Shown: one piece after another, positions 3,738 through 17,154 of the stretch
Layout of the letters: each line of letters begins with the position of its first letter
Position numbering within the stretch: the stretch's first letter is position 1
Source of the DNA: a virus
DNA length: 17,976 bases
Virus record (IMG/VR): IMGVR_UViG_3300045988_081534
Strand: one strand, 5' to 3'
Notes under the pieces: generated by a model
What the model saw: the letters and a program-made list of their open reading frames with translations, nothing else
The model's database searches: none
What the model was told of the DNA's origin: nothing
Position numbers and translations under genes: made by a program

Positions 3738-3756
3738 CTCAAAATTTTGCATAAAA

Positions 3757-5221: not shown

Positions 5222-5269
5222 GCCCTTTTTATTTAATTTTCAAGGTGCATTGCCTTGTTTTCTGTACTT

Positions 5270-5298
5270 ATTATAGCACATCTTCAAAGGCTTGTCAA
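5270..5298 (-). promoter_or_regulatory. promoter P1: TTGACA-17-TATAAT (perfect consensus)
   Basis: minus strand ctcttgacaagcctttgaagatgtgctataataagtac. Confidence 0.55.
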
Positions 5299-5403
5299 GA
5301 GATTCTTGAAAGATTTTTGAGAAATTCGCTGTCGCTGTCTGCCGTTCGTCTCTCTCACTTTCTGAATGTATTTTACCACAAGCAAAAGCAGATTGCAAGC
5401 GTC

Positions 5404-5529
5404 AAATTGCACAAAAAATCGGAATTTTGGGAGAGAGTTTTTGTGCAAAATTCTGCACAAAAACGGGACGAAATTTTTGTGCAACATTACCATTGAAAAA
5501 TTCGGCCCGCGTCAGCCATCCGCGGGCCG
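5404..5529. promoter_or_regulatory. control module upstream of P1-P3: two inverted repeats ATTGCACAAAAA...TTTTTGTGCAA (5404-5452, 5453-5486) and GC palindrome cggcccgcg-N9-cgcgggccg (5503-5529)
   Basis: read from sequence; same TTGCACAA/TTGTGCAA arrangement recurs at 6841,7727,9380,10809,12513. Confidence 0.45.
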
Positions 5530-5554
5530 TCGACCTTTTAGATATAAAAAAAAT

Positions 5555-5576
5555 AAGAGGGCTGTAAAGCCCTCTT
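5555..5576 (-). terminator. rho-independent terminator aagagggc-tgtaaa-gccctctt followed (minus strand) by a T8 run
   Basis: stop codon of 5575..5760 lies inside the 3-prime arm; near-identical copies at 6949-6968 and 7840-7859. Confidence 0.6.
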
Positions 5577-5760
5577 AAATATCAATCATATAACTATAAA
5601 CCATATCCCAAAGCGGCATATCATCCAGAAGGATATTTACAGTCAAAAGTCCGGTTTCTGTCGGCCCATCAACAAACCATCCCAGCCGCTGCATAAGGTG
5701 AATAACCTCATAGACATAATCGGGGTCAAGATGGTTAGTGGTAAACTGTCTTGAAAACAT
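5575..5760 (-). CDS. hypothetical protein, 61 aa
   Basis: SD AAAGGAAAAG upstream of ATG; start lies just after hairpin cgggcggggc/gcccctacccg (5777-5801) that contains the stop codon of the upstream exonuclease gene. Confidence 0.5.
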   Translation of the reverse strand: MFSRQFTTNHLDPDYVYEVIHLMQRLGWFVDGPTETGLLTVNILLDDMPLWDMVYSYMIDI

Positions 5761-5787
5761 TTCTTTTCCTTTCTATCGGGCGGGGCT

Positions 5788-6579
5788 TTAAGCCCCTACC
5801 CGAATTGTCGGATTATTTTTCAAACTTGCGGAAAGTTGACGCTGAAAATCTGTCATAGGCGGAAACTCTCTTTTATTCTCATACAGGGCCTTTCTCATGG
5901 GCTTATGCTGACGCATACAATACCACATGATTTCCGCCTCAATCAGAACATCCTCAAGCCCCGTATGACTTTCTTCAAAATCGGTATTGCCAGAGATAAA
6001 CCGCCACACGATTTCCGCAGTCTTGCGGGGGACACCATTAGCCTGGACATATCCGTTTTCCTGACAGAATTTCTTATAAGTGGGCATATTGCAGATAACA
6101 TCCTGTGTCATCTTCATAATATCCCAAATCTCCACGCTGTCAAACGGGAACCAATAACGCCACTTGGAGTAGGTCACATAACGCTGTGTAACTCTCAAGG
6201 CATTATCGTCAAATCTGGCATTATAAGCCGCAACTTCCTTAATGCCGTATCGCTCAATGGTATTGAGCATAACTTGGCGGATTTCATAAGTGGTAGCCAT
6301 TTTACGAGTGCCGGCCCGCAGTTCCTCAATATAGCGGGGAATTTTCCAATTATAATAAGCAGTCCGCATGAGATCCCGCTCATCGTTGAAAATGTCCCTA
6401 TTTACAAAACTGGCAGTTTCATAAATATTGCCCTTGGTATCCACTACCGCCCATCCGCAATCATAGACAAGAACGCAACTCATATCCATGCGGGCTTTGC
6501 CGTTTTCGTCAGTTTCAGTCAGTGTGTTAGCAGTTTCAGTATCAACCACCAAAACATAGTGTCTACGCTTATCAATCAT
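5788..6579 (-). CDS. DEDDh (DnaQ-like) 3-prime to 5-prime exonuclease, 263 aa
   Basis: ExoI YVLVVDTETAN, ExoII AAYNARFDDNAL, ExoIII HTGLEDVLIEAEIMW; SD AAGGAAG 9 nt upstream; the 250-aa plus-strand ORF 5836..6588 is its antisense shadow. Confidence 0.75.
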   Translation of the reverse strand: MIDKRRHYVLVVDTETANTLTETDENGKARMDMSCVLVYDCGWAVVDTKGNIYETASFVNRDIFNDERDLMRTAYYNWKIPRYIEELRAGTRKMATTYEIRQVMLNTIERYGIKEVAAYNARFDDNALRVTQRYVTYSKWRYWFPFDSVEIWDIMKMTQDVICNMPTYKKFCQENGYVQANGVPRKTAEIVWRFISGNTDFEESHTGLEDVLIEAEIMWYCMRQHKPMRKALYENKREFPPMTDFQRQLSASLKNNPTIRVGA

Positions 6580-6611
6580 AATCTTTGACTTCCTTTCCTC
6601 TTGTTGAGTTT

Positions 6612-6640
6612 ATTATAGCACATACCATGCTTGATGTCAA
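6612..6640 (-). promoter_or_regulatory. perfect consensus promoter TTGACA-17-TATAAT for the exonuclease gene
   Basis: minus strand cttgacatcaagcatggtatgtgctataat. Confidence 0.6.
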
Positions 6641-6804
6641 GAGGAAAAGGAAATTTTTATTGCGATTTACTGCAAGCTACTGGGCATTAGAACGGCCTAT
6701 TCTAACGGCGTTCACTCGACTTACGACACAATATAAATTTACTTCCTTTACTTTCTAAGAGTTCGCGACCTCTTGATTTCTTGGCCTTCCCCTCTTGACA
6801 AATA

Positions 6805-6922
6805 TATAATACCATACTTTCGGGATAATTACAAGATGGCAAATTGCACAAAATTTGCAAGCCAAAATTGTGCAACATCGACAAAAACAAAAACTCGGCT
6901 CGCCGCGTGCGCCAGCGAGCCG
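6805..6922 (-). promoter_or_regulatory. control module: promoter TTGTAA-17-TATTAT (6805-6833), inverted repeat AAATTGCACAAAA...AAAATTGTGCAAC (6841-6876), GC palindrome cggctcgc-N11-gcgagccg (6896-6922); no intact gene follows this promoter
   Basis: read from sequence; downstream of the promoter there is an AAGGAAG SD (about 6736-6742 on the minus strand) but no start codon. Confidence 0.35.
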
Positions 6923-6948
6923 CCCAAACGATATTAAAGAGTAAAAAT

Positions 6949-6968
6949 AAGAGGGCCGAAGCCCTCTT
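6949..6968 (-). terminator. rho-independent terminator aagagggc-cgaa-gccctctt
   Basis: identical stem-loop to 7840-7859; stop of 6967..7155 inside the stem. Confidence 0.6.
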
Positions 6969-7155
6969 AATATCCAAGATATTCTTTATTGATAATCTCG
7001 TCAAGCCAATAGCTCAAATCTTCAAGCGAAATATCGTCATCAATTTCATTGTCGGCCATAGCCTGATCAATTTGACCAATGAGAATGGACGCATTTTTCA
7101 ATACTTGTCGCTCTTCCTCGCTGAGGATAAGCCTATTAACCTTTCTATTCTTCAT
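6967..7155 (-). CDS. hypothetical acidic protein, 62 aa
   Basis: SD AAGGAAG 8 nt upstream; clean ORF to TAA. Confidence 0.5.
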   Translation of the reverse strand: MKNRKVNRLILSEEERQVLKNASILIGQIDQAMADNEIDDDISLEDLSYWLDEIINKEYLGY

Positions 7156-7195
7156 TTACAAAACTTCCTTTCTTATTTTAAGATTGACTGGTGGA

Positions 7196-7660
7196 TTACT
7201 CTACCAGTCGCCATAAGGCCGTAGGTAAATCTTCATGTGGCTCGATTGTTTCCCCTAAATGCCAGCCATCCCGCACACTTTTATTATCATCAATCAAAAT
7301 GAAATTGCTAATTCCCGGCTCAAAGTGTTTCCGCACACAATTTGCTTTTGTTGTGCCATATTCCACAAGGTGGACTTTATGTGCGGGGAAGTTGTATTTT
7401 GCAAGCCAAGTGCGCTTTGCGTCACGAACAGCAGTTTTATATGAGTTAGAACTGTCTTTTGCAAGCCAACTGATAACCCGAATTTCCCAGCCCTGCTCAA
7501 TGAGTTTATTAAGAACGGTATTCAATTCTTCTATATCGCAAAGAGGTTTGGCGACTGTATATGGATAGGGATTTTCATTCATTAAATCTTTTAACCAATC
7601 ATCCACGCCGTACAGGTCAGCGATTGTTCCATCCATATCAAAGCAGAGCATCTTTTTCAT
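7196..7660 (-). CDS. HAD-superfamily 5-prime(3-prime)-deoxyribonucleotidase (NT5C-like)
   Basis: motif I CFDMDGTIADL at N-terminus, C-terminal FILIDDN motif; overall NT5C-like spacing; SD AAGGAAG. Confidence 0.7.
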   Translation of the reverse strand: MKKMLCFDMDGTIADLYGVDDWLKDLMNENPYPYTVAKPLCDIEELNTVLNKLIEQGWEIRVISWLAKDSSNSYKTAVRDAKRTWLAKYNFPAHKVHLVEYGTTKANCVRKHFEPGISNFILIDDNKSVRDGWHLGETIEPHEDLPTALWRLVE

Positions 7661-7692
7661 TTTGATTTACTTCCTTTCTTTAGGTTGATTAA

Positions 7693-7808
7693 AGTATATC
7701 AGATTTCGGGATAGAAAACAAGAGGCAAACTGCACAAAATTTCGGCTGGAAAATTGTGCAACTTCTACAAAAGAGAAAATTCGGCGCGCCACGCACGTTA
7801 GCGCGCCG
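7693..7808 (-). promoter_or_regulatory. control module: promoter TTGTTT-17-TATACT (7693-7721), inverted repeat AAACTGCACAAAAT...AAAATTGTGCAAC (7727-7762), GC palindrome cggcgcgc-N11-gcgcgccg (7782-7808)
   Basis: read from sequence; spacer contains tatcccgaaa as in the 6805-6833 promoter. Confidence 0.4.
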
Positions 7809-7839
7809 CCGAGAAGCCTATTCAAAAAATGGGATAAAA

Positions 7840-7859
7840 AAGAGGGCCGAAGCCCTCTT
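7840..7859 (-). terminator. rho-independent terminator aagagggc-cgaa-gccctctt
   Basis: hairpin plus T-run on the minus strand immediately after the SpoVT-like stop. Confidence 0.6.
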
Positions 7860-8321
7860 TTAACTTTCACATATATTTGCAAGAAATCTTGCAGAAAGTT
7901 TAACCATGTCATGGACAGATTCTTCGTTATTGCTATTTTTATAGCAAATAAAACCAACCTGGTCGCCATTCACAAGAATTGGTGTAATAAACATACTTTC
8001 CCATTTTGTCGCCGAACTGCGAATATCAATCCAGTCATCGGGAACTCTTGTAATTCCAAAGGAACGCGGCCCGCATAAAATTCCATCATTGTCAAAAATA
8101 GCCGCGGCGATTCCGTTAGATGAAAGGGCATTTTGCATTTGTTTAGCGTAAGAGGAAAATTCTCCCATTATAGAATATTTCTTAAAAACTACGCCGCCAT
8201 CTTCTTCAAGAAAAATCTCTAATGGGTCGCCTTCTCTAATATGAAGGTTTCTACGGATTTCCTTTGGAATTACTATCCGGCCCAAATCATCAATACGGCG
8301 CACAATTCCAGTAGCTTTCAT
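7860..8321 (-). CDS. spoVT: SpoVT-like regulator: AbrB-type swapped-hairpin N-domain plus GAF-like C-domain
   Basis: MKATGIVRRIDDLGRIVIPKEIRRNLHIREGDPLEIFLEEDGGVVFKKY is near-canonical AbrB/SpoVT N-domain; C-terminus ...GFICYKNSNNEESVHDMVKLSARFLANICES parallels the SpoVT GAF tail; 153 aa. Confidence 0.8.
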   Translation of the reverse strand: MKATGIVRRIDDLGRIVIPKEIRRNLHIREGDPLEIFLEEDGGVVFKKYSIMGEFSSYAKQMQNALSSNGIAAAIFDNDGILCGPRSFGITRVPDDWIDIRSSATKWESMFITPILVNGDQVGFICYKNSNNEESVHDMVKLSARFLANICES

Positions 8322-8331
8322 TTTTATCTGC

Positions 8332-8362
8332 GGGAGTGCAAGATTTATAGTCTTGCACTCCC
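8332..8362 (-). promoter_or_regulatory. 12-bp-stem hairpin gggagtgcaaga/tcttgcactccc 10 nt upstream of the SpoVT-like start codon; only SD-like GGGAG lies inside the stem
   Basis: read from sequence; sister hairpin at 10422-10452. Confidence 0.45.
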
Positions 8363-8373
8363 TTCCTCCCTTC

Positions 8374-8760
8374 TTAATCCAGTTCTTTCAACATCCGTTC
8401 GAGGTCAGCTTTAGTACCACCCAACTCAAGCGTAAGAATAATTTCCGTTACGGCATTTTTCTCCCAGTCGCTAACTTCCCGCATGGCCTTTTTCTTCTCG
8501 TTCTCCATAGCGGGGTAAATACAATCCTGGCAAGCCTCTACCAGCCGGTCATTATATCTGCGGAAACTCATCCCCTTGTTTTTAACCTCCGAAAGAAGTT
8601 CGTCGTTAAGGGCTTTTACCGCCTGCTTAACTTTCTCCTGCATGATTTTACACTCTGTCTCATAAGCGGAAAAGGTTTCATGGACAGCCTGCCTTTTGAT
8701 TTCAGCCTTTACTCCAACTTCCTTTTCAATATACTCCCGAACAACCTTACTAACACGCAT
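8374..8760 (-). CDS. hypothetical protein, about 128 aa
   Basis: ATG with AAGGAAG 10 nt upstream (track start TTG two codons earlier); charged, helical-looking; conserved Cys pair CQDC. Confidence 0.55.
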   Translation of the reverse strand: MRVSKVVREYIEKEVGVKAEIKRQAVHETFSAYETECKIMQEKVKQAVKALNDELLSEVKNKGMSFRRYNDRLVEACQDCIYPAMENEKKKAMREVSDWEKNAVTEIILTLELGGTKADLERMLKELD

Positions 8761-8822
8761 TTCCAAAACTTCCTTTCTTAATTTTAATTTTTATTTATCG
8801 GGGTCGCCCCTTCCATGGTCTT

Positions 8823-8851
8823 ATTGTACCATAGTTGGGGCGATTTGTCAA
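8823..8851 (-). promoter_or_regulatory. promoter TTGACA-17-TGgTACAAT
   Basis: minus strand ggttgacaaatcgccccaactatggtacaataag. Confidence 0.5.
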
Positions 8852-8855
8852 CCCC

Positions 8856-9008
8856 TTACATCAAAGTTTTTGCAAGATATGCGAACATTAAGATTTCCGC
8901 CGCAAACATGATTTCAAGTCCTATGCAATCTTTTTCAATAGCGGCTACAAATTGCCATACCAGACACAGAACAAAAGCAATCAGAATTATCATGGTAAAA
9001 GTTGTCAT
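8856..9008 (-). CDS. small membrane protein, 50 aa
   Basis: internal start MTTFTMIILIAFVLCLVWQFVAA... with GGGGTGA 5 nt upstream, 4 nt after the TGA stop of the upstream gene; two hydrophobic helices. Confidence 0.5.
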   Translation of the reverse strand: MTTFTMIILIAFVLCLVWQFVAAIEKDCIGLEIMFAAEILMFAYLAKTLM

Positions 9009-9012
9009 ATAC

Positions 9013-9270
9013 TCACCCCGCAAAGGAAACTTCCGCAAAGTTAATATTGAAACGCTCCCATTCGCTTTCCATGCCTAACATCATATCATGGAAAAGGTCA
9101 TCACGATTTTTATATCCATCTTCTTCCAGAATAGCCTCCCATTCTCCATCGTCATATTGATTTTCCAGATAATCCAACGCAGACTTGCGGGCGGCAATGG
9201 TATTAGACGCTACACAGATAGGTTTATCGTCGTATCCATCCGTAACTAAAATCATTTTCTTTTCTTCCAT
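9013..9270 (-). CDS. hypothetical acidic protein, 85 aa
   Basis: SD AAAGGAAAG; clean ORF ending TGA. Confidence 0.55.
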   Translation of the reverse strand: MEEKKMILVTDGYDDKPICVASNTIAARKSALDYLENQYDDGEWEAILEEDGYKNRDDLFHDMMLGMESEWERFNINFAEVSFAG

Positions 9271-9322
9271 GATTTTTCTTTCCTTTCTTTCGAGGTGTTT
9301 CTATCTCCCTCTTTCTGATAAT

Positions 9323-9460
9323 AATATACCACAGGCAAATCAGAAAGTCAAGCGATTTTAGGAAAAAATTCTTCGTCAGATTGCACAACAATTCGAGTCT
9401 AAAATTGTGCAAATTGCCTCTTGATAAAAAATTCCGGCCGCGCCTATAGTGCACGGCCGG
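9323..9460 (-). promoter_or_regulatory. control module: promoter TTGACT-17-TGgTATATT (9323-9351), inverted repeat ATTGCACAAC...AATTGTGCAA with TTCGTCA heptamer (9372-9412), GC palindrome ccggccg-N13-cggccgg (9434-9460)
   Basis: read from sequence. Confidence 0.45.
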
Positions 9461-9478
9461 GCGATCGAATAAAAAAAG

Positions 9479-9500
9479 AACCTCCTGAATTTCAGGAGGT
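9479..9500 (-). terminator. rho-independent terminator acctcctgaa-t-ttcaggaggt preceded by A8 (T-run on the minus strand)
   Basis: 10-bp stem; downstream of the AbrB-like gene. Confidence 0.6.
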
Positions 9501-9542
9501 CATTAATTTCTGCATACCAACAACTCCCTTTCTTTTGAGAAG

Positions 9543-9776
9543 TCAATCGGCATTTTCAACAATCTTTAATCCGTTTGCTTGGATAATTTTCATAGCTTCT
9601 TCAAGCGAGGAATCAACCGATCCGCAGTCGATACAGATATATTTTCTGCCATCTTTTACCATAGTAGTAAAATAGTATTCTTGGCCAGAAACAAGGCCCA
9701 TCTACTCTCGCAGTCTTACTGGAATCATGATACGCCCACTTGAATCTAATTTCCTTGAGAAAGTAGTTTCTTGCAT
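9543..9776 (-). CDS. AbrB/MazE-family swapped-hairpin DNA-binding protein, 77 aa, with one in-frame TAG (9702-9704) read as sense
   Basis: MQETTFSRKLDSSGRIMIPVRLRE-x-MGLVSGQEYYFTTMVKDGRKYICID fits the AbrB N-domain pattern (GRI.IP...R..LG...G......V.DG.I.I) across the TAG; no SD; stop TGA; the plus-strand ORF 9421..9675 overlaps and is rejected. Confidence 0.55.
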
Positions 9777-9864
9777 TTTGATAAATAAATTCTAGTGACC
9801 TAGGCTCGTGCGAAAAACGACTCCATCACGGGAATCGCCGATTTAGAACAATCGGAAGGAACAT

Positions 9865-9981
9865 TTACCACTCGCAAGGCATTTTCTGGCAGAACTGAGA
9901 CATAGGGTAATTTTTACAAGAATCCTAGTTCAAACAGAACTCCAAAATAACCGCGAGTGCTTTCAGCACTTCTAAGGTCAT
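9865..9981 (-). CDS. possible small Cys-rich ORF, 38 aa, one in-frame TAG
   Basis: SD AAAGGAG 8 nt before ATG; MTLEVLKALAVILEFCLN-x-DSCKNYPMSQFCQKMPCEW; weak support. Confidence 0.2.
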
Positions 9982-10014
9982 TAGAAAAACTCCTTTCTTT
10001 ATTTTTCTATAATT

Positions 10015-10072
10015 ATTATAATATATTTTTTTGAAAAAATCAATAGGGCCGGCATTACGCCAGCCCTAATCT
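10015..10072 (-). promoter_or_regulatory. promoter TTGATT-17-TATAAT (10015-10043) preceded by GC hairpin agggctggc-gtaat-gccggccct (about 10050-10072)
   Basis: read from sequence. Confidence 0.4.
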
Positions 10073-10182
10073 CTGTAACCAAACCAGATGGTATTTACCA
10101 ATGTGAAGTAGAACTGTGCCATATCCCTTATTTGTCCAAACAGTGGAACCGATAGGATATGTATGCGGTAAACGCTCAATAC

Positions 10183-10398
10183 TCACTTTAGTTCCACCTC
10201 CTCGAAAGCTCTAATTTTTAGCAGATAATTATATAAGGCTCTATCTTGTTTGTCGCCGGTATTAAAATCAAGAGTACGAACACAGCCGGTAACATTGGAA
10301 TTAAGAGGATGATTCAAACACCAACCAGCCATATTACAAATTGTGTCTCCAAACTCCGCAGATTTTTCTACACTTTCAAATTTAATAACAGCAATCAT
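10183..10398 (-). CDS. hypothetical protein, 71 aa
   Basis: strong SD AGGAGG; preceded by hairpin 10422-10452. Confidence 0.55.
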   Translation of the reverse strand: MIAVIKFESVEKSAEFGDTICNMAGWCLNHPLNSNVTGCVRTLDFNTGDKQDRALYNYLLKIRAFEEVELK

Positions 10399-10421
10399 AT
10401 TTATTCCTCCTTTTTTATCGT

Positions 10422-10452
10422 GGGGAGTGGAGATTTATGGCCTCCACTCCCA
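10422..10452 (-). promoter_or_regulatory. 10-bp-stem hairpin gggagtggag/ctccactccc between two genes, 13 nt upstream of the AGGAGG SD
   Basis: shares GGGAGTG arm and AT-rich loop with the 8332-8362 hairpin. Confidence 0.45.
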
Positions 10453-10461
10453 CAGGTTTTC

Positions 10462-10701
10462 TTAACCATCTACATAAATGATTAGATTGTTGCCTCTTGC
10501 TTGAATACCAGTTACCGGAAGTCCCAGCACCCATTCCTTAGACGCCTCAATGACGTCTCCTCCCAGGGTTATCTTGTGATCAGGTAGCTCATGGTAATGA
10601 GCTTGGGTATTCTCATTGATAATTTCGACCCCTTCCCCGTCAAAGAACATGGTATCTTCTGCGAGCGGAGAAAGCAGACCTGCAATCATTTTCAAAGTCA
10701 T
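10462..10701 (-). CDS. hypothetical protein, 79 aa
   Basis: SD GAAAGGAAG; clean ORF to TAA. Confidence 0.55.
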   Translation of the reverse strand: MTLKMIAGLLSPLAEDTMFFDGEGVEIINENTQAHYHELPDHKITLGGDVIEASKEWVLGLPVTGIQARGNNLIIYVDG

Positions 10702-10755
10702 TTCTTTTACTTCCTTTCAAATTCTTTTTGTGACCTTGCCCCTCTGGACAAGTAT

Positions 10756-10895
10756 ATAATAACACATGACAAGAGGAATGTCAAGTAATTTCGGGAGAAA
10801 ATCTTTCGTCAAATTGCACAGACTTTCGATCATATAATTGTTGAAACTGCCGGATAAATAAAAATTCGGGCCGCGGCGCACGCTGGCGGCCCGGC
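10756..10895 (-). promoter_or_regulatory. control module: promoter TTGACA-17-TATTAT (10756-10784), half-site TTCGTCAAATTGCACAGAC (10809-10825), GC palindrome cgggccgc-N13-gcggcccg (10867-10895)
   Basis: read from sequence. Confidence 0.45.
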
Positions 10896-10926
10896 GAAAA
10901 GTCAATATGGAAAAGTGCATAAAAAT

Positions 10927-10957
10927 GACTGGCAATCTTTGTGCAGATTGCCAGTCA
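10927..10957 (-). terminator. rho-independent terminator gactggcaatc-N9-gattgccagtc preceded by an A-run (T-run on the minus strand)
   Basis: 11-bp stem. Confidence 0.6.
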
Positions 10958-10969
10958 AGTATTATTCCT

Positions 10970-11203
10970 TTACAGCTCCATGGTTTCCATGAGATAGCCC
11001 GTGCCCATCGGCACCTCCCGCAGATTGCTGGGACTTATACGCAACTTATATTTCCTATTGATTTTATTCGCCGCACTTGTCTTATCTCTTGCTTGGACAA
11101 TTACTGGTATATGGAGTTTATTCAGAGTGGGCTTATTAAAACTGAAATATCCCATCTCTCTGCGCTTGCGGCCCATGGCGTCGATATAAGTCCCTCTATA
11201 CAT
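10970..11203 (-). CDS. hypothetical basic protein, 77 aa
   Basis: SD TAGGAGG; clean ORF. Confidence 0.5.
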   Translation of the reverse strand: MYRGTYIDAMGRKRREMGYFSFNKPTLNKLHIPVIVQARDKTSAANKINRKYKLRISPSNLREVPMGTGYLMETMEL

Positions 11204-11216
11204 TTTTTTCCTCCTA

Positions 11217-11369
11217 TTATTTAGTCATGAGAACGAACATATTATATTCGCTGTGCTGTGGGTTTGGCTCACAGTTATCCGCCACTATATCAGCCCAACT
11301 AAGAACTGCCCAGAGTAGGAGAGCGGCACAAATGCCGCCTCCTATCCGCTTAATAATTCTCATTTCCAT
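11217..11369 (-). CDS. small membrane protein, 50 aa; start overlaps the stop of the upstream gene (ATGGAAATGA)
   Basis: MEMRIIKRIGGGICAALLLWAVLSWA... hydrophobic helix; not in the ORF track (below 60 aa). Confidence 0.35.
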   Translation of the reverse strand: MEMRIIKRIGGGICAALLLWAVLSWADIVADNCEPNPQHSEYNMFVLMTK

Positions 11370-11662
11370 TTCTTTGCCTCCTGTTCTTTAACCCATTCAG
11401 TACCGATTGTATCTCCGACCATAGCAACCTTATATTCGTCTTCGCTTGCAATTCTGGTATGCAGATTGCTATTGATAAACTTTCTATTGATATAAGCCCA
11501 GTGTGGCATATAGGCCACTCGCATGGCATTAAAAGCATCCAGGTCTAAGATAATGCCGTCCTCTACCTCTGCGGAACGCACATTCATCTTATACCGCAAA
11601 AGTTTAATAAATTCACGCTTTCTAAAAGTAGGCCCAACGAACCACTTAATATAATTGTTCAT
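11360..11662 (-). CDS. hypothetical protein, 100 aa
   Basis: SD GGGAGAAAGGA; clean ORF. Confidence 0.55.
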   Translation of the reverse strand: MNNYIKWFVGPTFRKREFIKLLRYKMNVRSAEVEDGIILDLDAFNAMRVAYMPHWAYINRKFINSNLHTRIASEDEYKVAMVGDTIGTEWVKEQEAKKWK

Positions 11663-11708
11663 AGTCTTTTATCCTTTCTCCCCGTATAGCCGTTAGGTCA
11701 GCTTCTTT

Positions 11709-11855
11709 TTAATCTACGATTTCTCCACTGGATAAATCCACAATCCAATGATTAGGATTGACTATCTCGTGACTGACCTTCCATCTTGCCATTGAAAGGG
11801 TGGATGGTTCATAATAGCGCATTTTCTCATTGGCTAAAACTTGTAACTGATACAT
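11709..11855 (-). CDS. possible small protein, 48 aa
   Basis: AAGGGG 8 nt before ATG; MYQLQVLANEKMRYYEPSTLSMARWKVSHEIVNPNHWIVDLSSGEIVD. Confidence 0.3.
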   Translation of the reverse strand: MYQLQVLANEKMRYYEPSTLSMARWKVSHEIVNPNHWIVDLSSGEIVD

Positions 11856-11886
11856 ATAGTATGCCCCTTTCTTTTAATTATTATAA

Positions 11887-11918
11887 CCCTGCCTTACCTT
11901 GTGTTTTGCAAGGCAGGG
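11887..11918 (-). other. 9-bp-stem hairpin ccctgcctt/aaggcaggg after the stop of 11930..12304; no T-run
   Basis: read from sequence. Confidence 0.4.
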
Positions 11919-11929
11919 TTTATAAACTG

Positions 11930-12304
11930 TTATCCTCTAATTTCTTCTTCTTGGGTCTTTGTCGCCCAATCAAAAGAGGTACGAACATCGGAAGGTCTGC
12001 GGAATTGCTCTGCTTCGGCCTTTGTCCCGCCTAATGCCATAGCATAGGCTTTCCAGTCAACCGTTCCTTTTGCGGTAGTTTCTTTATATACCACCGCTTT
12101 CGCCTTACCCTGCATTTGTACCGTGCCATATAGATAACTTGTTTTGTCCGTAGCCTTAAAAGCCTTACCTAATCTGGAAAATAGCTCTTTAGCCTTAGCC
12201 TTAGCTGCTTTCTCCGCCGCCTCCGCCGCAGACTTAGCCATCTTAGCGGCCATATACTCCATAATAATGGCTCGATCTTCATTGGTAAAATCAATCTTTT
12301 TCAT
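11930..12304 (-). CDS. hypothetical Ala/Lys-rich protein, about 124 aa
   Basis: start MKKIDF with SD AAAGGGAG; the track ORF extends upstream through the promoter to an unsupported TTG. Confidence 0.55.
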   Translation of the reverse strand: MKKIDFTNEDRAIIMEYMAAKMAKSAAEAAEKAAKAKAKELFSRLGKAFKATDKTSYLYGTVQMQGKAKAVVYKETTAKGTVDWKAYAMALGGTKAEAEQFRRPSDVRTSFDWATKTQEEEIRG

Positions 12305-12356: not shown

Positions 12357-12571
12357 TATTGTATCAAACCTTTAGCAGTTTGTCAATACCTTTTTTGAAA
12401 TTTTTTAATTTTCAAAGTGCCGTGCTTTTGTCTTTGTCCTACTGGACAAGTCCAGTTTACCACCAAAATGTTCACTTGTCAATAGTTTTTTTGAAATTTC
12501 TTTCTCTCTCTTTTGCACAAAATAAATAACATCTTGTTGTGCAGTTTGCATAAACCCTTTACGCGCGCGTA
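12357..12571 (-). promoter_or_regulatory. control module with two tandem promoters (TTGACA-17-TgaTACAAT at 12357-12385; TTGACA-17-TGgTAAACT at 12454-12482), palindrome actggac-aa-gtccagt at 12443-12458, inverted repeat TTTTGCACAAAA...TGTTGTGCAGTTT (12513-12544), GC palindrome tacgcgcgcgta (12560-12571)
   Basis: read from sequence. Confidence 0.45.
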
Positions 12572-12744
12572 TTCCTTTAGGGGCGTGCTTTCTTGCTTTC
12601 GTACTTTAACGAGTGAAAGAGGCCAACTACACTTCAATACTTTACCATGTGAAAGAGGGGCGTGTATTTTGGGAAAAACTGGAAATTTTTTTGTAAAATC
12701 GTTCTGCCACGCCATTTCAAAATCTAAATCGACTTTTCAATCTC

Positions 12745-12785
12745 AATAACGAAAAAGAGAGAAGAACTCACTTCTTCTCTCCGCA
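12745..12785 (-). terminator. rho-independent terminator gagaagaa-ctcac-ttcttctc plus T-run on the minus strand, ending the FolD/PARG/Pth2 operon
   Basis: 8-bp stem; stop codon of 12768..12911 within it. Confidence 0.6.
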
Positions 12786-12911
12786 TTTACACTTCTTTTT
12801 TAAATTATATATAATATGATCTTCTACTTTGTAAATTGGATATAATTCTCCACAGACTGCGCATATATTATAATAATGCTTGCCGTCAAACCATACTAAT
12901 ACTTTATCCAT
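12768..12911 (-). CDS. small zinc-ribbon-like protein, 47 aa
   Basis: MDKVLVWFDGKHYYNICAVCGELYPIYKVEDHIIYNLKKKCKCGEKK with CxxC...CxC; ATG overlaps the stop of the lipoprotein gene (ATGGATAA). Confidence 0.35.
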   Translation of the reverse strand: MDKVLVWFDGKHYYNICAVCGELYPIYKVEDHIIYNLKKKCKCGEKK

Positions 12912-13146
12912 CGTCGGTTGCCTCAAAACTAAAAATCAAATTATATCCATCCTCAGTTTCTATCGTTTCATATCCTTTTAAGATATATCCATCCTCTAGT
13001 TTAATATTAATCGCATCAGATCTCCACATTGTAGGAATATACTCTAGCCTTGGATAACGATTGTTCTCCTCCACGCAAGCAGTCAACAATAGTAAAATCA
13101 AAACTATATTAATTATAAAGCTGATACTTCTTCCCAATTTTGTCAA
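12904..13146 (-). CDS. small secreted lipoprotein, about 80 aa (candidate superinfection-exclusion type)
   Basis: TTG start with GGAGG 9 nt upstream; signal peptide MTKLGRSISFIINIVLILLLLTAC with lipobox LTAC; the track ORF starts at an earlier TTG (13176). Confidence 0.55.
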   Translation of the reverse strand: MTKLGRSISFIINIVLILLLLTACVEENNRYPRLEYIPTMWRSDAINIKLEDGYILKGYETIETEDGYNLIFSFEATDDG

Positions 13147-13546
13147 TTTCTTCCGCCTCCATTGGCCTAAATCCAATACACGTCAAAGTCCCTTCCGGGC
13201 CTTCGCGTTCTAACTCTGTTCTACAAGCATCATAGATAAGCCAATAATCCTTATTCTCTTCCCATCCTAATTCTTCTGCTATCTTAACAGCCTTTAACAA
13301 ATCATTCTTATTCTTCGCTCTACAAACTACTTTGGTCTCCGCTTCCGCTATCCAATTATGGAATAAGTCTCTATCGAGGCTTATTCCTATATGATACATA
13401 AGACCGTCTCTTTCTTTAACAACTTCTTTACTTCCCCAATATAACTTTTCCAAAAGAAAAGCAATAGAAGCATGGGAAACTTGTGCGGCAAGTTTCCCTG
13501 GAGACATATTTAAGTCTCGCCTCGCAATAATTAATTGCTTGAACAT
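13109..13546 (-). CDS. pth2: Pth2-family peptidyl-tRNA hydrolase
   Basis: MFKQLIIARRDLNMSPGKLAAQVSHASIAF... and C-terminal LIYDACRTELEREGPEGTLTCIGFRPM match PTH2 (archaeal/eukaryotic type) motifs; GGAGG SD; start overlaps the PARG-like gene by 16 nt. Confidence 0.75.
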   Translation of the reverse strand: MFKQLIIARRDLNMSPGKLAAQVSHASIAFLLEKLYWGSKEVVKERDGLMYHIGISLDRDLFHNWIAEAETKVVCRAKNKNDLLKAVKIAEELGWEENKDYWLIYDACRTELEREGPEGTLTCIGFRPMEAEEIDKIGKKYQLYN

Positions 13547-14298
13547 TTTTCCAAAACCTCCAAGAAAATTCTAAAATTGCGGGAATTGCGGTTTGGAATC
13601 GCAAAATAGATATTTGGAATATTATAATTGCGGGCTGCGTTTACGAGCAAGGTAGCGACCGTTGATGGATCTTGCATAAAAACACCACAACCCCAGGCTC
13701 CCGCGATTAAATTTTCCACTCCTTTAGCCTCGGCAATTTGATACATAAAATTAATTCTCTCTTCCATTATCCTATTGTTTAGAGAAAGAGGAACTTGCTG
13801 ATAAGTATGTGCTGTTCTATAATTAGGAGAAGCACAAGTAATTACATCAGCTAATTTTCTACTATCGTCTTTTTCAAAGACTACATCAGGAGTATAGATA
13901 GCTCTATCAAGATATAGGGCTCGATTCAGTCTCTGTCTATTCCATGCGTAATAAGTATCATCAAAAGCAAGAAGAATAGGGTAAAGGTTGCTTTCGTGAC
14001 ACAATGCCTCTTCTTGTGCAGAGCTGCCTCCAAGGAAGTAACCACCTGGATGTTTATAGCTTGCATAATTTAAGATCGCAGTCTTGCTCCGATCGGTTAA
14101 ACCGAATAGACAGGATACACTATCTTGGTCTTTAAGATAAAAGGTATTATGGTGGGTTTCTCGCGGTTTTTGCGGAAAAGGAAGATTGGGGCCAAAAATT
14201 TCAGAGTTTATAATTGCGCGATCTGTATCTTCCTTGAGTCTCACTTTAATGTCTGCGTAATGCGATTGCGCGTGTTGTTTGAGCTCTTCTCGTTTCAT
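13531..14298 (-). CDS. bacterial-type PARG-like macrodomain protein (DUF2263/TIGR02452), ADP-ribose glycohydrolase family
   Basis: NYASYKHPGGYFLGGSSAQEEALCHESNLY contains the GGG-X6-8-QEE PARG signature; GAWGCGVF macrodomain motif; SD GGAAGAAAGGA. Confidence 0.75.
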   Translation of the reverse strand: MKREELKQHAQSHYADIKVRLKEDTDRAIINSEIFGPNLPFPQKPRETHHNTFYLKDQDSVSCLFGLTDRSKTAILNYASYKHPGGYFLGGSSAQEEALCHESNLYPILLAFDDTYYAWNRQRLNRALYLDRAIYTPDVVFEKDDSRKLADVITCASPNYRTAHTYQQVPLSLNNRIMEERINFMYQIAEAKGVENLIAGAWGCGVFMQDPSTVATLLVNAARNYNIPNIYFAIPNRNSRNFRIFLEVLEKCSSN

Positions 14299-14342
14299 TT
14301 GCAGTTTCCTTTCTTCCGTGCGGTTGGGCAGAAGTGGATAAT

Positions 14343-14522
14343 TTAATTATCCCAATCTTCAAATAAAGTGTGTAAACTATTTGTTTCCGCCGCCAATCTC
14401 TTTAAATATTCTTTAAGAATTTTATTTTCTTTAACTTTAATTGCATAATCGCAAGTATTGTCGCAGTCTGGTGTGTACTACCGACCGAATCTATTATAAC
14501 AATAATCAATACAAGGACACAT
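14343..14522 (-). CDS. possible small Cys-rich protein, 59 aa, one in-frame TAG
   Basis: ATG 1 nt after the TAA of the upstream gene; MCPCIDYCYNRFGR-x-YTPDCDNTCDYAIK...; weak support. Confidence 0.25.
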
Positions 14523-14523
14523 T

Positions 14524-14877
14524 TTACTCATATTTACACCCATTCATTCTACAGTCTATCGTGCATTGCCCTGACGCTCCTTCACAAGGAATAGCATCAG
14601 GATAGTATTCAAAATAAGACGAAGTTAATAGAACTTCATATCCAAGTTCCCGCAGTATTCTTTCTGCGACATATCTATCTCTTAATTTAATCCATTCTTC
14701 TCTATTTACTTTTGTTTCTTCATATATTTTTCGAGATTCTTCCATATCTATTGTTATGATACCATCGGTGTTAGTTTTAAATACTGAAGGACTTTGTGTA
14801 TGATAAAATTTTCGAAAGGGATTGTTAATATGAAGAACTTCTTCAGCATATTTGTCAAAATCTCCCGAAAATTTCAT
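14524..14877 (-). CDS. hypothetical protein with Cys-rich C-terminus, 117 aa; ATG overlaps the FolD TAA (TAATG)
   Basis: start MKFSGDFDKY...; the track ORF begins at an upstream Met that lies inside FolD. Confidence 0.5.
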   Translation of the reverse strand: MKFSGDFDKYAEEVLHINNPFRKFYHTQSPSVFKTNTDGIITIDMEESRKIYEETKVNREEWIKLRDRYVAERILRELGYEVLLTSSYFEYYPDAIPCEGASGQCTIDCRMNGCKYE

Positions 14878-15662
14878 TATCTTTGCGCCTGTTTCGCTAA
14901 CTATAAACAATTTTTCATCAACCCCAATCTTGTTAATAGACCTACTCCTCCGGGGACAGGAGTTGACCATACATTATTTCTTTTTGCAATTTCATCAATT
15001 TCTACAAAGTCTCCAAGAGTAATTCCTGCTTCATTTCTGCGAATACCAACATCTATAACAATAGCGTTAGGACAGGCTTCTCTTGTTAAGCTAAATTTTC
15101 CTACCGCAGAGACAATTAAATCTGCTTGCCTTGTTAAATAGAGTTTTGTATTTATATCTGTTTTGCTATGACATACTGATACAGTCATATTTCTATCTAG
15201 TAGAGCTTTAGCCATTGGCTTTCCTACAATGTCGCTTCTTCCCAAAATAACAGCAGATTTACCTTCGTAGTTAAAACCACATTCATCCAAATAGTCTATA
15301 ATTCCTCTTACTGTTGCTGGAGTAATATTGCTCATAGGATTTAAACCATCCGCATCTTTAGAGATAGGTATTTGACTATAATTGAAATCAATTCCATTTG
15401 CTACTGGCATTTGAACTATTACCGCATCCCAGTCTTTCACATGGTCTAAGATCAATCTTAACTCTACTGAACTATTAGCTCTAAACACTTCTGCTTCCCA
15501 ACCAAGAGCGTTAAAGTCTTTTATTTTATTACGAATATAAATTTGATTTGCGGGATCCTAGGCTGTTGCGTCGATAATCATGAGTGATGGAACATTACCA
15601 CTAATCTCCCGCAATTTGTTTACCTATTGTTGAAAATATTCTTTTATATTAATCTATTGCAT
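14877..15662 (-). CDS. folD: bifunctional methylene-THF dehydrogenase / methenyl-THF cyclohydrolase (FolD) homolog with 4 TAG codons read as sense
   Basis: ATVRGIIDYLDECGFNYEGKSAVILGRSDIVGKPMAKALL...TPVPGGVGLLT is canonical FolD; upstream frame PSLMIIDATA-x-DPANQIYIRNKIKDFNALGW matches the FolD N-domain (LAVILVGDDPASQVYVRNK) through TAGs; GGAGG SD 9 nt before ATG 15662; after TAG 14901 the tail LAKQAQR-TAA matches the FolD C-terminal consensus; the track ORF 14901..15488 is a fragment. Confidence 0.75.
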
Positions 15663-15981
15663 CTGGATCAAGCCTCCAAGGATCACTAGTATCGTAATCA
15701 ATCATTTCATAGAAAGATATTTCATTTTCATTAACTTCTAATACCTAGTGAGGAATACACTATACTTCATAATCAAAATCTTTATTAATATGGTAAGAAG
15801 TATATATATGAATAGCAATAGGTCTAGGATCATTAACTCCCTAAATATCCCATAAACTTATTGCTTTATTTTGGAAGATTTCCTAAGCATACTATGGAGA
15901 TATAGCAATACTGATTATTAAGATATTAAAATAATACTATGCTTTTTCCGGTAAATCTAAATATGGTTCGTCAAAGAACAT
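15649..15981 (-). CDS. hypothetical protein, 110 aa, 7 in-frame TAG codons
   Basis: ATG 15981 with GGAG upstream; no TAA/TGA for 333 nt; ends at TAA 14 nt inside FolD; not callable with standard code. Confidence 0.4.
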
Positions 15982-16018
15982 TGGCAAACAAATCTCCTAT
16001 CTTATTTTTTATAATTAT

Positions 16019-16083
16019 ATTATAGCATTTTTAAATAAATTAATCAAATAAGATTTGACAATCTAGTTTTTTTTTGTTATTAT
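16019..16083. promoter_or_regulatory. back-to-back divergent promoters: leftward TTGATT-17-TATAAT (16019-16047) and rightward TTGACA-17-TATTAT (16055-16083)
   Basis: read from sequence; the -35 hexamers are 7 bp apart. Confidence 0.5.
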
Positions 16084-16110
16084 ATGAGTATAAAAGGAGA
16101 TGACAGTATG

Positions 16111-17154
16111 ATAAAATTAGATTATACTATTGAGTCTCCAGAAGAACGGAAGGCGCTTGTCGAAAAAATAATCGCAGAAAATCCGAACTTTAGTTCGAGT
16201 TATTTAGAAATATTAGCAGATTATTTAGTTCTATGTATGGAAAAGCAAGAGAAGAAAGAAAAGAATATATTAACAGATAATAGAATGGCTACTGTTAATA
16301 AAAGAGAATGTTCTTTCGAAGGGCTTGCGTCATAGATGGAAAATGGCGAGGATGGCATTTATGGTTTAATGTCAGAAAATAAAAATGTTATATTTTAGCC
16401 AAAGATTTCTATTACACAGAAAGATTTAGATACTATACCATGTTTAAAATAGTTGAGAGAAACCATTAATGTCTGGGAGGGCGCTTTAAAACGCGCTGCT
16501 GGGACAAAATAGGCATATATGATGAAAAAAGCATTAATAGAGATGCGAAAAGATTAGTATATCATTAAGCAAGCATATTAGAAACCTATTATACCATGTA
16601 AATTAACGAGATCCGTAAGAACTCATATTCCTCTTGATGATTAGAGTTATCTTAATGGACAGGAGGTAGTAGTAAAGGGTATTTCGCTAATGGACGCCAA
16701 TGTTGTTTCTGCTATTTTATGCAATTATTCAAAATTAAAAGAAGATAGTTATGATTAGTTTGAGGGAGATACATGGTATTTAATTCAATCATTTGAAGAA
16801 ATATGTGATAAAGCTCTTAAAGACTTTCCAATCTATTTACGAATTGTTGAACTCAAAATTGATAAAAAGTAGAATAACGAAATATAGGAAATATTAAAAA
16901 ATGAGTTTGGTAAAACATATAGTGTTGAATATATTTCTAGCCTATGGAGAAATAAGATTCCTAAACTCATTGCGGAAGAGGCTTTAGAAGATTTTTTACG
17001 TTGGTAGTATAAACAAAAAGGATACCCAATGAAAAAATGTTCTAAGTGTGGGCAATTAAAGCCAGCCCATAATCAATTCTTTTCAAAGAATAAGACAAGC
17101 AAAGATAACTTATATAGTATCTGTAAGCGCTGTCGCAATAAGAAAAGAGGTTGA
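16111..17154 (+). CDS. hypothetical protein, 347 aa, C-terminal C4 zinc ribbon, 11 in-frame TAG codons
   Basis: AAGGAG 8 nt before ATG 16111; single frame to TGA 17152 with TAG at 16333,16396,16450,16510,16555,16579,16642,16756,16870,16885,17005 and no TAA/TGA; C-term KKCSKCGQLKPAHNQFFSKNKTSKDNLYSICKRC; the track shows only the first 83 aa. Confidence 0.6.

Follow-up and report, generated by a model that had tools for sequence, protein, structure and literature searches.

Does a compact run of phage genes that joins a folate enzyme, an ADP-ribose hydrolase, a peptidyl-tRNA hydrolase and a lipoprotein encode one anti-defense system, or a set of enzymes that each work alone? We asked this of the viral record IMGVR_UViG_3300045988_081534, a stretch of 17,976 nucleotides that is analyzed here at its full length and is called the window. 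When TAG is taken as a sense codon, positions 12768-15981 of its minus strand hold eight co-directional open reading frames (ORFs), designated g1 to g8, which include the predicted FolD (g2), PARG (g5), Pth2 (g6) and lipoprotein (g7) genes. A first-pass annotation, made from the sequence alone, had described these genes as one operon and as a host-takeover or anti-defense set. Comparison with related phages argues instead for an accessory-gene slot, filled by what appear to be individually self-sufficient enzymes and not by the parts of one multi-component machine. In the reading that we favor, the unit is probably a mosaic cassette of independent enzymes in a TAG-recoded, SPbeta-like gut phage, and those of its genes that keep to the standard code would be translatable before the code switch.

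The ORFs are real genes only if TAG encodes glutamine (Gln). Under the standard bacterial code the window is fragmented, and long frames return on its right side when TAG is read as sense; the frames restored in this way include a 261-aa FolD and two rightward genes, one of 356 aa and one of more than 271 aa. The two rightward genes contain 18 in-frame TAG codons, and each of the 28 complete genes that were examined ends in TAA or TGA, none in TAG. Orthologues that differ at a TAG position have CAA or CAG there in 11 of 24 cases overall; for the conserved late (rightward) genes alone, the figure is 8 of 9. These exchanges with Gln codons indicate that the phage reads TAG as Gln (code 15), and they bear out the first-pass annotation, which had called it recoded. 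Recoding of TGA, which would give longer minus-strand frames at 8.8-12.8 kb, was rejected: the conserved genes contain no in-frame TGA, and in relatives the gene calls are separate small genes with TGA or TAA stops. The window and 32 related loci yielded no tRNA or suppressor tRNA, and in those 32 loci no release factor lay near the cassette.

Genes to the right of the cassette match the Pfam families YonG_N, YonD_N and YonB, on contigs of up to 146 kb. The family to which the phage belongs comprises gut phages of roughly 80-165 kb with SPbeta-like (YonG-type) late genes. Contigs of 148 kb, the size of a whole phage, have been binned in Oscillospiraceae and Eubacterium metagenome-assembled genomes (MAGs), which suggests a Firmicutes host, and two AbrB/SpoVT-type regulators encoded in the window point the same way. 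No nucleotide similarity was found between positions 12700-16100 and 50,697 INPHARED phages. The family holds both standard-code and TAG-recoded lineages, because several of its YonG-type members (L221, L226, L227, L237, L246, L256, L257 and L259-L264; L numbers denote the loci compared) have no in-frame TAG in two anchor genes. Recoded gut phages that keep early genes in the standard code and recode their late genes have been described (Borges et al., bioRxiv 10.1101/2021.08.26.457843). The phage probably falls into the 'Agate' clade of that study, to which we liken it by size, host phylum and code mix only.

The eight genes are packed closely (Table 1), and the near-absence of intergenic space claimed in the first-pass annotation holds at every junction except g4/g5, where the sole gap, of 44 nt, carries the Shine-Dalgarno sequence of g5 itself. 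Overlaps measure 14 nt at g1/g2, 20 nt at g3/g4 (8 nt if a later ATG is used) and 16 nt at g5/g6; the g3 start ATG overlaps the FolD stop codon as TAATG, and the g8 start overlaps the g7 stop as ATGGATAA. At g6/g7 the overlap from the TTG start is about 68 nt, and the annotated upper value of 38 nt would imply a different start. Shine-Dalgarno sequences are recognizable before PARG, Pth2, g7 and g8; because g3 has none, its translation probably depends on coupling to FolD. A TTG at 15987 offers g1 an alternative start with better Shine-Dalgarno spacing. Public gene calls in relatives (L001-L010) reduce g7 to a 41-aa fragment that begins at an internal Met and leave g4 uncalled in nine of the ten loci examined, so that both genes are under-annotated in databases.

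Table 1. Coordinates of the eight-gene unit, its control elements and other features of the window. Lengths and TAG counts are from ORF calling with TAG as a sense codon.
Feature	Coordinates	Strand	Length	In-frame TAG	Description
g1	15649-15981	-	110 aa	6	No family assigned
g2 (FolD)	14877-15662	-	261 aa	4	
g3	14524-14877	-	117 aa	0	No family assigned
g4	14343-14543	-	66 aa	1	Cys-rich; no family assigned
g5 (PARG)	13531-14298	-	255 aa	0	
g6 (Pth2)	13109-13546	-	145 aa	0	
g7 (lipoprotein)	12904-13176	-	~90-aa precursor	0	TTG start
g8	12768-12911	-	47 aa	0	CxxC...CxC
Cassette promoter (predicted)	16019-16047	-			Sigma-A/sigma-70-type: -35 TTGATT, 17-nt spacer, extended -10 TGcTATAAT; 10/12 matches plus TG (scan)
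Divergent partner promoter (predicted)	16055-16083	+			TTGACA-17-TGtTATTAT; faces the TAG-rich rightward unit (16084 onward)
Intrinsic terminator (predicted)	12746-12782	-			Hairpin 12782-12756, 11-bp stem GGAGAGAAGAA / TTCTTCTCTCT, then TTTTTCGTTAT (scan)
Promoter-like site of next unit	12482-12454	-			TTGACA-17-TAAACT, with TG
Promoter-like site of next unit	12386-12358	-			TTGACA-17-TACAAT, with TG
Sigma-factor-like gene	16084-17154	+	356 aa	11	C-terminal CxxC..CxxC; phrog_5767 ('sigma factor'), 5.6e-39
AbrB/SpoVT-type regulator	7860-8321	-	153 aa		MazE_antitoxin, 9.5e-12; SpoVT_C
AbrB/SpoVT-type regulator	9543-9776	-	77 aa	1	MQETTFSRKLDSSGRIMIPVRLRE...
HAD-like ORF	7196-7660	-	154 aa		Starts MKKMLCFDMDGT (HAD-type DxDxT motif)
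Direct repeat	3151-3222 / 3449-3520		72 nt		
Palindrome copy in the PARG gene	14089-14096				

Same-strand ORFs that overlap or nearly abut, with one promoter upstream and one terminator downstream, are the features predicted of an operon. The ORF map, the promoter and terminator scans and the conservation of the promoter confirm the annotated picture of eight leftward genes between a promoter at 16047-16019 and a terminator. The -35 elements of the two back-to-back promoters lie 7 nt apart. A cassette-facing element of the form TTGAC[CG]/TTGATT-17-TGnTATAAT stands at the same position in L015, L017, L024, L026 and L027, and the rightward element TTGACA-17-TGnTATTAT is kept in all six lineages compared (the window and five diverged relatives). 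The sequence around the pair is not conserved across the six lineages, and their cassette proteins differ by up to 55%. Because the pair is kept in five diverged relatives while its flanks change, the cassette promoter is more than a chance match, and we regard it as the strongest non-coding evidence for the unit. In L016, g1 and the sigma-factor-like gene are separated by about 0.9 kb of extra DNA (5449-6326), at a place taken up in the others by some 100-250 nt with the divergent promoters; the extra stretch may be an inserted gene or a mobile element.

At the unit's other end, the 5-nt loop of the terminator hairpin contains the TGA stop codon of g8. The terminator is restricted to lineages that have g7-g8; elsewhere the cassette simply ends ahead of two conserved promoters. 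In the window these are two strong minus-strand promoter-like sites in the spacer of about 370 nt at 12400-12767, which belong to the next unit and are kept in L017 and L027. A 78-aa ORF at 12479-12715 is uncalled in every relative.

The first-pass annotation had called for hidden Markov model (HMM) searches to place FolD, PARG and Pth2 in their families, and all three proteins score above the Pfam gathering cut-offs. The product of g2 matched PF02882 at 7e-38 (129.9 bits, cut-off 27), PF00763 at 1.6e-9 (38.5 bits, cut-off 32.8) and phrog_7320 at 9e-50. It does not reach the FolD equivalog level, the best score being 162 bits against a cut-off of 445 (NCBIfam NF010776), and is best described as a divergent, short member of the predicted FolD family and not as an equivalog. 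Aligned to 3P2O and 4A5O, it retains YIRNK (Y-x3-K), VQMP, KDADG, GRSDIVGKP (GxSxxVGxP) and PGGVGL. It lacks about 10 residues after DGLNP and has PATV in place of PCTP, and both changes lie beside the folate pocket.

The g5 protein scored 170.4 bits against TIGR02452 (cut-off 50) and 93 bits (3e-26) against PF10021 (DUF2263; cut-off 23.5), which identifies it as a predicted bacterial-type poly/mono-ADP-ribose glycohydrolase with a PARG-type macrodomain. Its best matches in the PDB are the PARGs of Deinococcus radiodurans (5ZDA, 2.8e-24) and Thermomonospora curvata (3SIG). In an alignment of 18 PARG homologues at 40-71% identity (A1), Q95-E96-E97 and the diphosphate-binding loop G200-A-W-G-C-G-V-F207 are invariant, and both align residue for residue with 5ZDA. 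The QEE glutamates, named beforehand as residues to look for, are therefore in place, together with the GAWGCGVF loop. Of the signature cited for the family (GGG-X-QEE, with a spacer of 6-8 residues), the QEE is present and the glycine triplet reads GG-Y: the third Gly is Tyr in g5 and Y, F, L, Q, M, N or G across the clade. Contigs with an identical g5 protein fall into 52 index blocks of the contig collection, and the identity of orthologues runs from 44% to 99%. Among cellular homologues, the closest belong overwhelmingly to Lachnospiraceae and other Clostridia. TAG-recoded Lak megaphages, Bacillus phage G and huge-phage MAGs encode homologues as well, with neither Pth2 nor FolD nearby.

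Hydrolysis of ADP-ribose O-glycosidic linkages, in poly(ADP-ribose) and in 2'-O-ADP-ribosylated RNA, is known for the bacterial PARGs SCO0909 and DRB0099 (PMC11833690). Only bacterial-type PARGs have been shown to reverse the 2'-OH RNA ADP-ribosylation made by RhsP2, and they protected cells from that toxin; the same study discusses a ligase-PARG-HD-Pnk operon of D. radiodurans (PMC11833690). A parallel arrangement is seen at positions 3772-6777 of L025 (ENA ERZ16268257 scaffold_126), where a 722-aa fusion of an AAA_33 kinase, a Metallophos phosphatase and a T4-type RNA ligase has a PARG homologue of 43% identity directly downstream of it. That the phage PARG might cleave Thoeris signals is speculation; our literature search found no paper that treats gcADPR together with PARG.

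The product of g6 matched PF01981 at 1.4e-22 (80.5 bits, cut-off 23) over all 115 profile positions (1-115) and phrog_1866 at 7e-21, and is thus a predicted Pth2-type peptidyl-tRNA hydrolase. Bacteria normally use Pth1, and Pth2 is the typical phage version. Equivalog level is not reached (82.7 against 126 bits for NF003314, 65.5 against 82 for TIGR00283). The protein aligns in two pieces to the archaeal Pth2 structures 1RLK, 1WN2 and 1XTY, and its motif blocks also align to 1RZW; an insertion of about 28 residues after the N-terminal motif, which grows to about 80 residues in L024, splits the match. It keeps GKLAAQVSHA, the active-site Lys block, and YDACRTE...GTLTCIG, the Asp/Thr block, so that the catalytic residues whose absence would have told against the annotation are present (GKLAAQVSHA and the D..T motif). 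The Gly of the DAG motif is Cys (DAC). Lineages are near-identical over the first 27 residues, and a strong GGAGG Shine-Dalgarno sequence precedes the start. Pth2 homologues are found in many standard-code phages, among them phiCD211, Enterococcus phages of 140 kb and jumbo phages of Xanthomonas and Sinorhizobium; in phiCD211 the gene lies 1.1 kb from RtcB. A role for phage PTH2 in ribosome rescue, as a component of RNA-repair toolkits acting after tRNA cleavage, has been proposed (PMC7824862).

The lipoprotein that the first-pass annotation placed in the unit is also there. Reading g7 from its TTG start, which is preceded by GGAGG, gives a signal peptide with a positive n-region (MTKLGRS), a hydrophobic h-region (ISFIINIVLILLL) and a lipobox L-T-A-C that agrees with [LVI][ASTVI][GAS]C. 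Its orthologue in L027 begins MKLGKIFICINILVLSLLMLTGC, has the lipobox region ...LLMLTGC and shares a D/EDGY(I/V)L motif with it. The lipoprotein is present in 17 of 27 related cassettes and absent from L009, L016 and L017, and it matched no family in the libraries searched. Nor did g1, g3, g4 or g8 match anything in Pfam, NCBIfam, PHROGs or PADLOC (all cassette proteins except FolD were searched against the last). The g1 gene always stands first in the cassette, and its homologues form 12 clusters, all of this phage family; those of g3, which has a conserved C-x6-C-x3-C-x4-C motif at its C-terminus, form 23 clusters, all on contigs of the family. A Cys pattern CPC..C..C..C marks g4, which is confined to the sub-lineage of the window, and the zinc-ribbon-like g8 is found only in the closest relatives (5 of 27 cassettes). 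An AlphaFold model of g1, built with the database homologue P0122 as the first alignment row, had a predicted local distance difference test (pLDDT) score of 43, too poor for a fold search; that of g3 (pLDDT 64) had no Foldseek match in BFVD or PDB at E<=0.001.

These data bear on the simplest alternative, namely that there is no functional unit at all and that chance frames or decaying remnants are accompanied by promoter and terminator look-alikes in AT-rich DNA. Promoter-like matches are indeed modestly enriched in the AT-rich region (26 found, against 16.4 +/- 4.3 in shuffled sequences), g4 and g8 are tiny and lineage-restricted, and Pth2 or PARG is broken in some strains. However, three of the proteins score above curated HMM thresholds and keep their catalytic motifs, PARG recurs both as the identical protein and as diverged orthologues over the range given above, the promoter pair persists across lineages with differing flanks, and g1 and g3 are conserved across the phage family. 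We regard this alternative as effectively refuted.

We next examined how the cassette varies. A YonG-like anchor was used to guard against ascertainment through PARG, and gave 80 viral loci, 58 of them with at least 7 kb upstream. All 27 relatives with a YonG identity of at least 66% carry a g1-headed cassette in the same slot by the promoter pair; the other 31, more distant relatives have none of the cassette genes at the site. Content differs from one cassette to the next: FolD, PARG and Pth2 are all present in 12 of the 27, FolD and Pth2 in nine, FolD and PARG in two, and PARG with Pth2, Pth2 only, FolD only and g1 only in one each. Gene order is shuffled as well, with arrangements such as g1-FolD-g3-Pth2-lipoprotein-PARG, g1-g3-PARG-FolD and FolD-x-x-x-AAA_28-PARG-DUF5662. 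In L026 (ENA ERZ28574846 scaffold_26; 5483-7195), an AAA_28 gene (NadR-type kinase-like) precedes PARG with a 4-nt overlap, DUF5662 follows and Pth2 is absent. Some strains in the species-level cluster of the window lack g7 and g8; one genome has a split Pth2, and another (L019) has degraded copies of both PARG and Pth2. The late genes beside the cassette have also changed more slowly than its proteins (90% against 50-84% identity in L016). Because content and order vary, genes are lost and the cassette proteins diverge faster, the locus is better described as an accessory slot than as an obligate multi-component system. The synteny check that the first-pass annotation had proposed thus recovered the cassette in 27 relatives with variable content and order, and its idea of a single anti-defense or host-takeover system does not agree with the result: the genes are not obligate partners, and one subset of FolD, PARG and Pth2 after another occurs in shuffled order. 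Nor does the unit contain the HAD nucleotidase that was counted among its genes. None of the eight encodes one, and the sole HAD-like ORF of the window, which is probably what was meant, lies 5 kb outside in another unit; it has weak PHROG matches to polynucleotide kinase (phosphatase) and 5'-3' deoxyribonucleotidase and no Pfam match at 0.01.

A different picture would arise if PARG and Pth2, both made early, acted together on the host translation apparatus as a coordinated counter-defense and translation-repair module. PARG would strip ADP-ribose added by host toxins or immune ADP-ribosyltransferases from RNA, tRNA or translation factors; Pth2 would liberate tRNAs that cleavage of tRNA, acetylation or a stalled ribosome has left as peptidyl- or N-acyl-aminoacyl-tRNA; FolD would restore formyl-tetrahydrofolate and nucleotide pools, and the lipoprotein would block superinfection. 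The properties of bacterial-type PARGs as the sole hydrolases shown to reverse RhsP2 RNA ADP-ribosylation (PMC11833690) and the ribosome rescue proposed for phage PTH2 (PMC7824862) lend themselves to such a module. So do the 16-nt overlap of the two genes in the window, their presence together in 13 of 27 cassettes, their joint degradation in L019, and their freedom from TAG in every lineage, as expected of early counter-measures. PARG and Pth2 also keep company with RNA-repair genes elsewhere: the L025 PARG abuts the kinase-phosphatase-RNA-ligase fusion, the phiCD211 Pth2 lies near RtcB, and in the unrelated, apparently standard-code viral contig L067 (IMGVR_UViG_3300045988_169419) PARG and Pth2 are about 700 nt apart. 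There, 9 kb (1200-10067) also hold an AAA_33 kinase that carries an HD domain, an HNH nuclease, a nucleotidyltransferase of RlaP-like type, a DHH phosphoesterase, a DUF4406-like protein and a Sir2 homologue, and the pair stands among several of these (the HD-polynucleotide kinase, the nucleotidyltransferase, the phosphoesterase and Sir2).

L067 is, however, the only independent PARG-Pth2 neighborhood that we found. Pth2 lies within 7 kb of PARG in 12 of 79 PARG-bearing IMG/VR loci, namely 11 of this phage family and L067, and in 3 of 80 PARG loci of GTDB genomes, all of them binned copies of the same phage family. Outside the family, Pth2 within 6-7 kb of PARG is thus seen in 1 of 68 viral and 0 of 77 genomic loci. 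A wider linkage of PARG with Pth2 or with FolD was rejected beyond this family and L067 over the 79 viral and 80 genomic loci. In 12 of the 27 cassettes just one of the two genes is present, the window contains no ADP-ribosyltransferase, toxin or known anti-defense homologue, and PADLOC, which models defense proteins, matched none of the cassette proteins searched (all except FolD). An anti-defense or translation-repair role for PARG and Pth2 individually is plausible from their families; that they form a coordinated module we consider possible but unlikely.

The mosaic cassette of independent enzymes, which we continue to favor, has points to answer. FolD and Pth2 are found together in 21 of 27 cassettes, they are also close to each other in unrelated Enterococcus phages, and L067 shows that PARG and Pth2 can come together independently; this persistence hints at more functional linkage than pure mosaicism would give. 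In Enterococcus phage H1 (L108, OP534061.1), a cultured phage of 138 kb, positions 1826-7581 encode thymidylate synthase, endolysin, DHFR, Pth2 and FolD in 6 kb, with a tRNA cluster after them; the gene that stands between DHFR and FolD is Pth2, about 1.3 kb from FolD. H1 is a second, independent case of FolD-Pth2 proximity. That one promoter serves all eight genes is itself what we infer, and weak internal promoter-like sites lie at 14828-14800 and 14374-14346; a search of the window and its relatives for conserved internal promoters before PARG or Pth2 gave only weak, non-conserved matches of 9-10/12. The short FolD falls far under its equivalog cut-offs, so its activity or substrate may differ, and half of the genes (g1, g3, g4 and g8) have no assignable function.

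The genetic code divides the cassette. Of the Gln-type codons, 18 of 33 are TAG in the rightward pair of genes and 11 of 21 in g1, FolD and g4, as against 0 of 16 in g3, PARG, Pth2, g7 and g8 (binomial P = 3e-6 versus the rightward genes); in the leftward genes further on it is 1 of 45. The split runs through the family. TAG occurs in 22 of 25 distinct g1 sequences (57 TAG codons to 46 CAA/CAG) and in 8 of 25 FolD sequences (23 to 153), and it is absent from all 20 distinct sequences of g3, 12 of PARG, 21 of Pth2 and 15 of the lipoprotein, which contain 74, 87, 76 and 11 CAA/CAG codons, respectively. This matches the published pattern of standard-code early genes in recoded phages (bioRxiv 10.1101/2021.08.26.457843). 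Two compartments of G+C content are also seen in the window: the TAG-using genes (g1, FolD, g4, the rightward genes and plus-strand 889-1633) have 0.28-0.35, the TAG-free leftward genes at 2530-12304 have 0.36-0.50, and PARG and Pth2 lie between, at 0.38-0.39.

From the gene structure, family membership, intact catalytic motifs, promoter conservation, variable content and code split seen here, we read what the gene products would do, when they would be expressed and how the phage may benefit. The cassette would form one transcription unit of a phage of about 146 kb, driven by a host-type promoter that stands back-to-back with that of the rightward unit. Because of their internal sense TAG codons, g1, FolD and g4 would be made at full length only after the cell has switched to TAG as Gln. 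PARG, Pth2, the lipoprotein and g8, which are TAG-free and have ribosome-binding sites of their own, would be translatable from the first minutes of infection, as would g3, which is TAG-free only. The divergent FolD would interconvert 5,10-methylene-, methenyl- and 10-formyl-tetrahydrofolate to supply thymidylate, purines and Met-tRNA formylation while the phage makes its DNA and protein. PARG would hydrolyze the O-glycosidic linkages of ADP-ribose to proteins or nucleic acids, 2'-O-ADP-ribosylated RNA among them, Pth2 would free tRNA from peptidyl-tRNA or N-blocked aminoacyl-tRNA, and the small lipoprotein would reach the membrane surface by export. Since the TAG-rich, sigma-factor-like gene at 16084-17154 could be expressed only after the switch, late transcription would be coupled to recoding.

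The same split could be taken further, as the sign of a code-partitioned early-protection unit, in which counter-defense against RNA ADP-ribosylation and tRNA-directed immunity is timed by the genetic code. The strong host-type promoter would fire at infection, and only the TAG-free g3, PARG, Pth2 and lipoprotein would yield protein in a cell that still uses the standard code. PARG, removing 2'-O- or phosphate-linked ADP-ribose that host ADP-ribosyltransferases (immune or toxin) have put on RNA, and Pth2, releasing tRNAs locked as peptidyl- or N-acyl-aminoacyl-tRNA, would as a pair keep tRNAs and ribosomes usable, and g1 and FolD would join once TAG suppression is established. We judge this scheme rather unlikely.

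Alternatively, the cassette could be a support kit for the code switch itself. TAG suppression would cause readthrough of TAG-ending host mRNAs, stalled ribosomes and more peptidyl-tRNA drop-off; Pth2, made before the switch, would recycle the tRNAs, and FolD would sustain initiator-tRNA formylation. All 27 cassette-bearing relatives are TAG-recoded, Pth2 is TAG-free in 21 of 21 distinct sequences, and PARG homologues also occur in the TAG-recoded Lak phages. However, the correlation with recoding is confounded by phylogeny, many TAG-recoded relatives with a YonG identity of about 51% have no cassette at the site, and Pth2 and FolD are common in standard-code phages of Enterococcus, Clostridioides difficile and Xanthomonas. 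Neither a suppressor tRNA nor a release factor lies near the cassette in the 32 loci, and the recoding literature that we searched does not mention peptidyl-tRNA hydrolase. We consider a code-switch kit quite improbable, and return to the mosaic cassette as the reading that the variable content of the slot best agrees with.

Other features of the window lie to the left of the unit. The palindrome CCGATCGG occurs in 8 copies, against 0.06 expected. Seven are clustered in the mostly non-coding interval 2400-3703, often as (A/G)ACCGATCGGG and accompanied by the direct repeat of Table 1, and the eighth lies inside the PARG gene. The cluster may serve as an operator or an iteron array, or may mark a replication origin. 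About 1 kb at 3556-4611 is uncalled in every relative and has a G+C content of 0.44-0.48, above its surroundings. Rfam gave no match over the whole window at the gathering threshold, and a search of 2900-5800 by E-value returned only sub-threshold matches at chance level.

For now, the main yield of the locus is a documented example of auxiliary metabolic and translation genes in large phages and of standard-code early genes in recoded ones. If PARG and Pth2 do protect translation, the cassette would be a compact and naturally varied test bed, with relatives that have and lack each gene, for counter-measures to RNA ADP-ribosylation and tRNA-targeting immunity in gut Clostridia, a setting in which they are little explored. 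The split between TAG-using and TAG-free genes behind one promoter would also serve as a natural reporter for recoding as a timer of phage protein production.

The first-pass annotation had not recognized the combination as described, and our literature search found no paper that describes the cassette; each of its families is, however, known in large phages, and FolD and Pth2 are neighbors in Enterococcus phage H1. H1 FolD (gp145; phrog_7320), which stands in a ThyA-DHFR-Pth2-FolD-tRNA neighborhood, is like g2 an auxiliary metabolic FolD of a large Firmicutes phage near Pth2. Compared with it, g2 is shorter (261 against about 285 aa), with about 10 residues fewer in the loop before PCTP, has sense TAG codons, and is adjoined by neither ThyA nor DHFR. 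With the bacterial-type PARGs (T. curvata 3SIG, D. radiodurans DRB0099 5ZDA and Streptomyces coelicolor SCO0909), g5 shares the HMM family, QEE, the GAWGCGVF loop and a length of about 250 aa; it differs in having PGG-Y and not GGG, in being phage-encoded, and in lying beside FolD and Pth2 rather than a ligase and a kinase. Its identity to the PARGs of solved structure is low, and only residues 71-217 align. DRB0099 and the PARG homologues of L025 and L067 adjoin RNA-end-healing genes. The PTH2 proteins of jumbo phages (PMC7824862; phrog_1866) share GK-x-AAQ-x-HA and D-A-x-x-T...GT-x-T with g6. In contrast to them and to archaeal and eukaryotic Pth2, g6 has the insertion, DAC for DAG and scores under the equivalog cut-offs, and it appears to be translationally linked to a PARG gene, unlike known phage PTH2.

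At the level of the genome, the phage of the window resembles Bacillus phage SPbeta: its late genes match Yon families, which take their names from SPbeta proteins, SpoVT/AbrB-type regulators and an HAD-like phosphatase are encoded in the window, and the size class is similar (about 135-150 kb). The phage differs from SPbeta in being TAG-recoded and in having no nucleotide similarity to any INPHARED phage. The recoded gut phages of Borges et al. likewise read TAG as Gln in late genes and avoid it in early ones, are about 150 kb in size and form a mixed-code family; their code boundary falls between modules, whereas here it lies inside one co-directional gene string behind one predicted promoter. 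Thus, each gene family and the layout of standard-code early and recoded late genes were already known; the novelty lies in this particular cassette, which is widely distributed, and in the sharp code boundary that runs through it.

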